Below are positions 3,001 through 6,000 of a stretch of DNA of 64,000 bases, piece after piece. The DNA is taken from the NCBI RefSeq assembly GCF_036507355.1, contig NZ_AP027877.1; one strand, given 5' to 3'. Every line of letters begins with the position of its first letter. The first letter of the stretch is position 1. Made by a program: the position numbers. This stretch comes from Escherichia coli (lineage in GTDB: Bacteria; Pseudomonadota; Gammaproteobacteria; Enterobacterales; Enterobacteriaceae).

Positions 3001-6000
3001 TCTGTTCTACCGTTCCTCAAGAGATGGCTATGGTTTTGAGGAAGACTGGGCAGAAGTTTATACCTCGAAAAATCTTCCACCAGAAAGCTACCCAGTCGGT
3101 GCACCAATCCCGTGGCCATCAGATACCGTTCCGTCTGGTTATGCCCTGATGCAGGGGCAGACTTTTGACAAATCTGCTTACCCGAAACTTGCAGCCGCTT
3201 ATCCGTCAGGCGTGATCCCTGATATGCGTGGCTGGACGATTAAGGGCAAACCTGCCAGTGGTCGGGCCGTATTGTCTCAGGAACAGGACGGCATTAAATC
3301 GCACACCCACAGCGCCAGCGCATCCAGTACGGATTTGGGGACGAAAACCACATCGTCGTTTGATTACGGCACTAAATCCACGAATAACACCGGGGCGCAT
3401 ACCCATAGTGTTAGCGGTACGGCTGCTTCAGCCGGTGCACATACCCATTCGATAACATTTGTTTCAGGTGGCACCAAAGGTGCTCCGGGAAGTGGATCAC
3501 CTGATTATTCTAAATACAGTGTTAACACTTCTTCTGCAGGCGCTCATACGCACTCTGTATCGGGTACTGCTGCAAGCGCAGGTGCACACGCACATACTGT
3601 AGGTATTGGTGCTCATACGCACTCTGTTTCGATTGGCTCACATGGACACACCATCACCGTTAACGCTGCGGGTAACGCGGAAAACACCGTCAAAAACATC
3701 GCATTTAACTACATTGTGAGGCTTGCATAATGGCATTCAGAATGAGTGAACAACCACGGACCATAAAAATTTATAATCTGCTGGCCGGAACTAATGAATT
3801 TATTGGTGAAGGTGATGCATATATTCCGCCTCATACAGGTCTGCCAGCAAACAGTACCGATATTGCACCGCCAGATATTCCGGCAGGCTTCGTGGCTGTT
3901 TTCAACAGTGATGAGGCATCGTGGCATCTCGTTGAAGACCATCGGGGTAAAACGGTTTATGACGTAGCGTCAGGGGACGCGTTATTTATTTCTGAACTCG
4001 GTCCGTTACCGGAAAATGTTACCTGGTTATCGCCGGAAGGGGAGTTTCAGAAGTGGAACGGCACAGCCTGGGTGAAAGATGCAGAAGCAGAAAAACTGTT
4101 CCGGATCCGAGAGGCGGAAGAAACAAAAAACAGCCTGATGCAGGTAGCCAGTGAGCATATTGCGCCACTTCAGGATGCTGTGGATCTGGAAATCGCAACG
4201 GAGGAAGAAATCTCGTTGCTGGAAGCATGGAAAAAGTATCGGGTATTGCTGAACCGTGTTGATACGTCAACTGCACAGGATATTGAATGGCCAGCACTGC
4301 CGTAGGGTAAAACATATAAATTCTATAATTAGATGTATCTTTCCATTTACGGCAAGGAAGGGGGCTTGGAAGACGTAAAGCATCTCACACCGAGATTATT
4401 TTTTATATGTCAGGTGTCTGAAGTTTTGCTTTGGCTCTTAAAATGGTTTGCCGCGAGGTTTTGAATTCCCGGGCAATGGCACTTATACTTACACCTGACT
4501 TAATTCGTTCGAATACCGCCTGTTTCTGTTCTTCATTTAACACAGGTGGTCGACCAAAACGTTTCCCTGCGCCGCGGGCTCTTACTATCCCGGAATGAGT
4601 GCGTTCAAGTAAAAGGTCTCGTTCAAATTCAGCGACTGCTGAAATTACTTGCATCATCATTTTTCCTGTTGGACTGGTCAGGTCAATGCCCCCCAATGCT
4701 AAGCAATGCACTCTGATACCTGTTTCGGTCAGTTGTTCCACTGTTTTCCTGATATCCATTGCATTACAACCAAGGCGATCCAGTTTTGTCACAATCAATT
4801 GATCACCACATTTCAGGCGAGCAAGCAACCGGTTAAAACCAGGACGCTCACTGGTTGCTGCTGAGCCGCTAATGTGTTCTTCGATTATTTGCTGAGGTTT
4901 GATTTTAAAACCTGCACTTTCGATTTCCCGGCGTTGATTTTCGGTGGTCTGATCCAGCGTTGATATCCGACAGTAAGCAAAAATTCGAGACATAGTGAGA
5001 CTCTATACGAAATTGGTGTTCATATCATAATGCATCTCAGAAAATAATTATGATTATTTTTGTGCATATTTGTATGTACACGTTCGAAAATAAACGAATG
5101 CGTATGCAACCCCGTAATTTTGGTGAGACCCAAAATCGATTTTGTGAAAAATGGCTTTAACTCGGTTTGTTTTTCGAGTTCCGGGCGGACTCAAGGAAGA
5201 AGAATAGTGTTGCGTGTTATTTTAACCAGATTTCAAGTTGTTTGGTCGTGGAAAAGTGGAGCAAAATGTTGTTAAAGTGGAAAAATGATAAAAAAGTAAG
5301 TTTATTATATTACATTTTACCATTTAAATTTTGGTTGTCTTTAAGAACTGATATCGCTGTTTGTAATAATTCTTTGTTATCCAGCCATGATTTTTTCTTT
5401 ATGTTTCCTTCAATGTAATCAAGCAATGTTCTGGTATTGATAGGTCTTCCCTGTTTTGCTACTTCCACTACAGCATCCCCTAGGATAATTCTTACTTCAG
5501 GAAGCTGCGCAGGGAACCACTTTAGGGTGTCTTTTGATTTCATGAAGATATTCCTTAAAATATTATTGATTTTCATTGCGATATTGTATGTCTGATTCAG
5601 GATATGTTGACTTATACATCGGTTTTGTCTGGGTTATTGGATATGCCAATCCCTAATTTTATTAGGGCATGACTAAAAATGCTGAATATGATAAGGAGAG
5701 ATGTGATTATCAGTATGCTGTTCATATAGCCTCGAATTAGTAATGTGTTATATATGATATAGTTGACAATTTTTATCTTGGGTGTTCTTAAAGTTCGTAG
5801 ATAAACATTGTCGTTTCAGGTATACAGGAATGCTAACAGGTGGCAGCAAAAATCAGGCGGTTTATGGCGCAAGCTGAAGCGGCAACTGCAAACTATCTTA
5901 TGCAGAGACTCTACACGGATTGGGTTTAAAAGTATACATAGATAACAGTTTTTATCTGAAAAAGAAAAATATCAAGGTGATATAGCCTATATGCCTTTGA

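Follow-up and report, generated by a model that had tools for sequence, protein, structure and literature searches.

The left end of the 64,000-nucleotide stretch of Escherichia coli DNA analyzed here (the window) carries a truncated side-tail-fibre gene whose product is rich in paired histidines. This locus raises the question of whether these HxH motifs reflect a biased composition, a plain tandem repeat or a recognizable fibre module, and whether they still serve the cell that carries them. An earlier note on this DNA had described at least seven degenerate GAHTHS copies, separated by short linkers, in an Stf fragment and had proposed that they coordinate metal ions in a trimeric beta-helix.

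The HxH motifs and their homology to T4 gp37

Translation of the open reading frame at 2912–3730 yielded exactly seven HxH motifs, which span window positions 3296–3652 and occupy a single frame (every start position is 2 modulo 3; Table 1). Where the earlier note gave at least seven copies, the number is exactly seven. GAHTHS itself accounts for only four of them, the remaining three being KSHTHS, GAHAHT and GSHGHT. The description of the copies as coding, in frame and degenerate at the DNA level was borne out, since the 18-nucleotide copies all lie in the one frame and match at 8–14 of 18 positions in pairwise comparisons; the exception is copies four and six, which share 17 of 18. Tandem Repeats Finder detected no DNA tandem array in 3000–3800, and a repeat search of the DNA returned short families only. 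The linkers, in contrast, are not uniformly short as had been supposed. From one HxH to the next, the gaps measure 29, 11, 32, 11, 6 and 6 residues. The longest of them, 32 residues, is a subdomain of its own that forms the receptor-binding tip, and motifs five to seven are evenly placed, nine residues start to start.

Table 1. Coordinates, strand and supporting evidence for features of the stf locus. Positions are those of the window. The fragment was divided into domains by pairwise alignment to T4 gp37, using the T4 domain limits of PMC6957217.
Feature	Position	Strand	Evidence
nohA (Nu1)	2157–2702		
gpA 5' stub, terminase large subunit, first ~89 codons	2677..2943	+	Pfam GpA_ATPase PF05876, E = 1.8e-07; ORF list
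stfQ-like lambdoid side-tail-fibre 3' fragment, last ~262 codons plus stop	2944..3730	+	colinear with the C-terminus of the 1117-aa phage 2H10 Stf
Collar domain (T4 D10, 811–881)	3086..3298	+	Pfam Collar PF07484, E = 1e-12; 60/70 identical to T4
HxH motif 1, KSHTHS	3296–3313	+	
Ascending stem (T4 882–931), motifs 1–3	3299..3448	+	37/50 identical to T4
HxH motif 2, GAHTHS	3392–3409	+	
HxH motif 3, GAHTHS	3434–3451	+	
Hypervariable tip subdomain (T4 932–959), presumed receptor contact	3449..3526	+	7/21 aligned residues identical to T4
Descending stem (T4 960–1009), motifs 4–7	3527..3676	+	33/50 identical to T4
HxH motif 4, GAHTHS	3539–3556	+	
HxH motif 5, GAHAHT	3581–3598	+	
HxH motif 6, GAHTHS	3608–3625	+	
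HxH motif 7, GSHGHT	3635–3652	+	
C-terminal 17 residues, return to collar (T4 1010–1026)	3677..3727	+	16/17 identical to T4
tfaQ, intact tail-fibre assembly chaperone	3730..4305	+	Caudo_TAP PF02413, E = 5.4e-44; tfaQ in EC26 and K-12 annotation
pinQ, intact serine invertase, convergent with tfaQ	4403..4993	-	Pfam Resolvase and HTH_7; annotated pinQ

The last 215 residues of the product are biased in composition (32 Ser, 29 Ala, 26 Gly, 24 Thr and 14 His), and this bias is what would favor reading the motifs as a chance or low-complexity His/Gly/Ser/Thr stretch, or as a metal-storage peptide of the host with no relation to phage fibres. Every one of the 14 histidines in the segment nevertheless falls inside the seven HxH motifs. 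When the segment was shuffled with its composition preserved, the mean was 0.85 HxH motifs and seven were reached in just one of 100,000 shuffles. A search for relatives returned 1494 proteins at E ≤ 1e-10, nearly all of which come from E. coli and carry a tail fibre annotation, and the locus lies in a prophage, with terminase on one side and tfa genes on the other. Together with the match to T4 gp37 described below, the shuffle test and the homology refute the low-complexity reading, to which we assign a negligible probability.

Searching the PDB with phmmer matched the fragment to 2XGF, the receptor-binding tip of T4 gp37 (E = 1.5e-89; query residues 16–230 against chain residues 27–242). 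A profile built from 25 homologues strengthened this match to E = 7.6e-120 and recovered no other solved chain with the needle. In the pairwise alignment, 153 of 208 aligned residues were identical (73.6%) and all seven motifs were in register: motifs 1–3 align to T4 H883/885, H915/917 and H929/931, and motifs 4–7 to H966/968, H980/982, H989/991 and H998/1000. These are the only HxH motifs within that part of T4 gp37. This homology supports the earlier reading of coding, in-frame HxH repeats within an Stf fragment. HxH iron sites in a needle of this kind (gp37/Stf) have been recognized from the time of the 2XGF structure.

Sequence families tell the same story. Pfam recognizes six stretches of PF03335 ("Phage tail fibre repeat") in the product, scoring 43.9 bits against a gathering cutoff of 20, with the Collar domain PF07484 upstream of them. 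The 14-residue unit of PF03335 is the same repeat unit as in this fragment; the family is defined by sequence alone and is silent on metal binding. Among 25 aligned homologues, ten of the 14 histidine columns are invariant (25/25), two are conserved in 24/25 and two in 21/25. The spacing of 29, 11, tip, 11, 6 and 6 is likewise kept, with tip lengths from 32 to 53 residues between fixed flanks. What the region encodes, now as a remnant, is very probably the receptor-binding module at the C-terminus of a lambdoid side tail fibre, one of the T4 gp37/lambda Stf type, and the HxH array is an already known feature: the iron rungs of the gp37/Stf fibre tip, curated in Pfam.

The T4 structure provides a model for how such a module is built. 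The T4 gp37 needle holds seven coordinated iron atoms along its length (PMC6957217). Domain D11 is a hairpin-like stem that forms an insertion in the collar domain D10; it runs up through residues 882–931 and down through 960–1009, and the tip subdomain (932–959) sits at the turn (PMC6957217). H929 of the three chains contributes to one metal site, H929 and H931 are essential iron ligands, and the substitutions H929A and H931A each abolish plaque formation (PMC6957217). More generally, one HxH from each of three chains supplies six histidines to an octahedral Fe site (PMC6116203). Because the alignment reproduces the ascending, tip and descending layout of T4, it assigns motifs 1–3 of the fragment to the ascending strand and motifs 4–7 to the descending one.

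This layout differs from a plain tandem solenoid, in which consecutive GAHTHS units would form a trimeric beta-helix with one metal per turn. Such an arrangement would be compatible with the regular nine-residue spacing of the last three motifs, and HxH metal sites do occur in other trimeric phage proteins, namely the central spikes of P2 and phi92 and the fibre shaft of R-pyocins (PMC6116203). However, the unevenness of the remaining gaps, the lack of a tandem array at the DNA level and the end-to-end alignment with 2XGF all speak against it, the T4 stem running up and then down around an inserted tip (PMC6957217). Length variation among the homologues points the same way. Where a homologue carries an extra descending HxH (+9 residues), its first ascending spacer is longer by 10 residues and contains one more FDYGTK unit; such paired extension fits the need of an antiparallel hairpin and not that of a solenoid. 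We therefore regard the solenoid as very improbable and retain the hairpin of the T4 type. Of the picture suggested in the earlier note, metal binding is supported by the 2XGF homology, whereas the beta-helix label does not suit a stem that forms an up-and-down hairpin.

In the complete fibre, three chains would trimerize with the aid of Tfa, the chaperone whose gene comes directly after stf. Each chain would leave the collar and ascend the needle with HxH motifs 1–3, form the variable, receptor-contacting tip, and return down the needle with motifs 4–7, its final 17 residues lying in the collar. At seven levels, the HxH of all three chains would face the three-fold axis, with six imidazoles holding one iron octahedrally; one iron per level over seven levels would thus give seven metal ions stacked along the core. 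The stacked ions probably set the three chains in register as the trimer folds and lend the needle stiffness. That the chains trimerize, that they bind iron and that the ions have a role in folding we infer by homology to T4 gp37, and both the identity of the metal as iron and its occupancy of the HxH rungs are predictions. For this exact sequence, the predicted histidine pairing follows by homology from the 74% identity to the crystal structure. For a single chain, AlphaFold2 returned a mean pLDDT of 47.1 and almost no secondary structure with the 25-sequence alignment, an outcome to be expected of an obligate intertwined trimer. Three copies joined by 25-glycine linkers, run with an alignment of triplicated homologues, gave a mean pLDDT of 31.9, and the confidence of both models is too low for structural use.

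The truncated gene and its prophage context

At the left end of the window, which is an Escherichia/Shigella-type chromosome, a Qin-like cryptic prophage comes to its end. Downstream of the stf fragment, the start of tfaQ overlaps the stf stop codon, and TfaQ shares 29% identity with T4 gp38 (E = 1e-18). The gene order after pinQ is ydfK, ydfJ and ydfI, and K-12 has the same neighborhood in the opposite orientation. We also considered whether stf and tfa form an invertible tail-fibre segment of the Gin/Cin/Pin type. When the whole window was scanned for crossover cores of the Gin/Hin/Pin type (AAACCNNGGTTT, one mismatch allowed), the five matches were no more than chance would give, and none lay near stf-tfa-pin. 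The 97 bp between tfaQ and pinQ hold no second stf/tfa copy. An invertible segment was rejected on these grounds, i.e., no crossover cores in the region and no alternative stf/tfa copy.

Upstream, the stf gene is truncated. About 262 of the approximately 1117 codons of a full-length Stf are left, the N-terminal attachment and shaft regions are absent, and in their place stands a gpA stub in another frame. The stub is joined out of frame to stf at 2943/2944 (junction sequence GCTGGGTGTTTACCGGAGTCGGAAGTTGCC): the gpA frame (frame 1) continues into the stf sequence as far as a stop at 3039, and stf is read in frame 2. An open reading frame with a GTG start at 2912 spans the fragment and runs uninterrupted for 272 codons (2912–3730).

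The position of the break was located by comparison with other genomes. Homology with strain EC26 breaks at 2945, and the stf half of a junction probe (2885–3005) matches E. coli genomes from 2942–2944 onwards. Among the 5426 complete E. coli genomes probed in this way, none spans the junction, and the nohA-stfQ junction of K-12 and the junction of EC26 are both unlike it. A core stretch of the window (30000–34000) reaches at most 98.8% identity with any genome of this set, so the set does not include its lineage. The colinearity with phage 2H10 downstream of 2944, combined with the gpA stub upstream, marks the locus on its sequence as a deletion remnant of a 2H10-like phage, holding a fragment of a member of this fibre family and not a working fibre gene. 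Since stf survives as an out-of-frame gpA-stf deletion remnant, the HxH array most likely has no function in its present host cell.

A consensus scan of 1900–5300 for promoters and terminators gave counts at the level of chance, with no plus-strand promoter-like site upstream of the fragment; the only plus-strand promoter-like matches lie downstream of it, at 4461 and 5019. Nor could any obvious ribosome-binding site be seen ahead of 2975. A truncated product may be expressed from the open reading frame that begins with GTG at 2912. The remnant persists within the Qin-like cryptic prophage end (stf'-tfaQ-pinQ), where it is open to recombination with infecting phages. Phage lambda is known to recombine with the stf/tfa region of Qin (PMC3945230).

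Selection and possible activity of the remnant

We compared rates of nonsynonymous and synonymous substitution between this locus and those of K-12, EC26 and phage 2H10. Omega was 0.02–0.21 for the scaffold, indicating strong purifying selection, and 0.4–1.0 for the tip. Past selection in the phage and present selection in the host are inseparable in such values, and the low omega may be wholly inherited. Given that it can date from service in a phage, we rejected dN/dS as a sign of current function.

The nearest phage relatives of the tip allele are those of the T4-like myoviruses AV116 and AV118 (83%). In many E. coli genomes the same tip has been independently truncated, joined to varied upstream pieces and annotated as a protein; some of these truncated tips are in-frame terminase-Stf fusions (P0001, P0002 and P0081).

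These observations bear on a possible activity of the fragment in the cell. An internal start (GTG 2912 or ATG 2975) could allow translation of the tip, and TfaQ could fold it into a free trimer that masks a surface receptor and so blocks the adsorption of phages that use it. Candidate receptors would include OmpC and the LPS core, and the model is the chimeric StfE2 fragment of e14. StfE2, a tail-fibre fragment from another cryptic prophage, blocks T2 adsorption after an inversion driven by PinQ, which is reported to act in trans on e14 (PMC12529663). The unbroken 272-codon frame, the intact tfaQ and pinQ genes after the fragment and the recurrence of independently truncated tips annotated as proteins, some of them fused in frame to terminase, are in keeping with such an activity. 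The out-of-frame gpA junction argues against it, however, as do the consensus scan, which turned up no promoter-like sequence around the fragment, and the lack of an obvious ribosome-binding site upstream of 2975. The low omega may all be a legacy of phage use, and StfQ has zero occurrences in the PinQ study (PMC12529663). On balance, receptor masking by the fragment appears decidedly improbable. A further proposal is that the host keeps the orphan tip, TfaQ and PinQ as a working unit and not as debris, either as a receptor-masking protein, by analogy with StfE2, or as a ready-made host-range cassette; we consider this decidedly improbable. In the latter case, the rare tip allele found here could be exchanged between lambdoid prophages and virulent T-even phages through recombination across conserved His-box scaffolds.

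For the remnant with an array that most likely has no present role, the finding is of little importance beyond annotation: HxH iron sites are known, the Pfam family is curated and Qin-type stf remnants are annotated in K-12. Its practical value lies in an exact map of the fragment (collar, two stems, seven metal rungs and the tip at 3449–3526) and in the record of a pseudogene remnant with a junction absent from the genomes searched. The tip allele is possibly useful for engineering the host range of fibres.

Relation to known fibres

The full-length relative belongs to the lambdoid Escherichia phage 2H10, which has the order stf-tfa-pin-ydfK in common with the locus and is 96% identical and colinear with it from the 3' end of stf through tfa, the invertase and ydfK. 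Its 1117-residue Stf is 90.5% identical to the fragment. The StfQ remnant of the K-12 Qin prophage carries the same seven HxH motifs and has the neighbors nohA, tfaQ, pinQ, ydfK, ydfJ and ydfI in common; the K-12 annotation lists this remnant as a protein. The flanks of the tip are conserved in both relatives, whereas the tip allele itself (3449–3526) is completely unlike those of K-12 StfQ and 2H10.

The likeness to T4 gp37 extends over the whole of the retained module. Collar, ascending stem, tip, descending stem and C-terminal strand are all matched in the fragment, the seven HxH motifs stand in the same register and at the same spacing (29, 11, tip, 11, 6, 6), and in both cases a chaperone gene of the gp38/Tfa family lies directly downstream. 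The fragment differs in belonging to lambdoid stf and not to T-even gene 37, and in being truncated to its last ~262 codons. Its tip is only ~33% identical to that of T4 and two residues shorter, so its receptor specificity is probably different from that of T4. Among lambdoid fibres, the Stf of Ur-lambda is homologous to the gp37 tip and binds OmpC (PMC12617516).

HxH sites also occur in phage and phage-like proteins outside this family. PDB searches with the fragment returned only 2XGF and a collar-domain match to the short tail fibre 9CUY, with no homology to the HxH sites of pyocins, P2, phi92 or gp12. The R1/R2 pyocin fibre shaft, P2 gpV, the phi92 spike tip and T4 gp12 (in a zinc-bound crystal) have the same three-chain octahedral HxH site on the axis (PMC6116203). 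In these proteins the HxH sites are described as one per protein (PMC6116203), in contrast to the seven stacked sites predicted for the fibre tip encoded here.

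Internal repetition, length and tip allele of the fibre needle

The needle-shaped tip of the side-tail-fibre fragment contains a 17-residue stretch that is present twice with identical protein sequence, once in the ascending stem and once in the descending stem (coordinates in the table). At the DNA level, the 60-nt windows holding the two copies are identical at only 39 of 60 nt. Synonymous differences were found at 11 of the 17 codons, and each of the three serines is encoded by an AGY codon in one copy and by a TCN codon in the other. Judged from these sequences, the pair suggests either an old internal duplication that would have been kept by strong protein-level constraint or convergence.

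Needle length was compared across an alignment of 25 homologues of the fragment protein, in the region equivalent to 3299-3676 of the window. The two stems vary in length in a coupled manner: each added descending unit of the form xxGxHxHxx (+9 aa) is accompanied by one added ascending TSSFDYGTK unit (+10 aa). The homologues each carry between five and nine HxH motifs, and in three of them motif 2 is replaced by a unit of the FDYGTK type. The tip allele, which lies between the stems, is rare in sequenced phages, with only two matching records, i.e., the T4-like myoviruses AV116 and AV118 (83%). Escherichia phage 2H10 is the closest phage relative overall; its tip differs from this allele.

Features of the left end of the window
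Feature	Coordinates	Strand	Remarks
gpA'-'stf deletion junction	2943/2944		probe window 2885-3005; out of frame
17-residue stretch, ascending copy	3392-3442		
Tip allele	3449-3526		
17-residue stretch, descending copy	3539-3589		
RF02111 'IS009' (Rfam) match	4073-4271	+	221.5 bits vs gathering score 117
tfaQ-pinQ spacer	4306-4402		97 bp
pinQ	4403-4993	-	intact; convergent with tfaQ
ydfJ ORF	6329-7612		427 aa

The gpA'-'stf junction and the prophage edge

A probe across the junction between the terminase stub and the fibre fragment had no spanning match in any of the 5426 complete E. coli genomes searched. The same stf breakpoint, defined by an 11-residue sequence, was found in other genomes, where it is fused to differing upstream pieces. 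In one homologue (P0002), the breakpoint is joined in frame to a different terminase family, itself truncated at the homologous position, giving a 350-aa fusion; in another (P0001), the piece upstream of the same breakpoint is unrelated. One stf breakpoint has been used repeatedly, with various upstream partners.

The ydfJ gene is 1284 bp long in the window and in E. coli strains K-12 and EC26 alike. Insertion of the prophage into ydfJ fits the available annotations, since the EC26 copy is flagged in RefSeq as missing its N-terminus and the Qin prophage feature of K-12 begins at the ydfJ 5' end.

Elsewhere in the window, the Hfq-binding sRNA STnc560 (Rfam RF01407) gave a full-length match at 16446-16658 (+; 276.8 bits). 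For the core genes lsrF, lsrG, tam, uxaB, and yneE (30000-34000), the best identity to complete E. coli RefSeq genomes was 98.8%. The DNA probably derives from a Shigella or from an Escherichia lineage that is poorly represented among sequenced genomes.

Surroundings of pinQ and comparison with phage 2H10

The ORF list shows no alternative fibre segment near pinQ, and a scan for crossover cores gave no recognisable site there. PinQ has been reported to act in trans, inverting the P segment of e14 (PMC12529663). The 'IS009' match falls wholly within tfaQ, in the 3' half of its coding sequence.

The tfa and invertase genes of phage 2H10 are arranged as in the window. Beyond pinQ, the two sequences differ in that a 60-bp segment of 2H10 is absent from the window at about 5309-5310, just past the 3' end of a ydfK-like gene (-), and divergence is also higher at about 5030-5110, upstream of pinQ.
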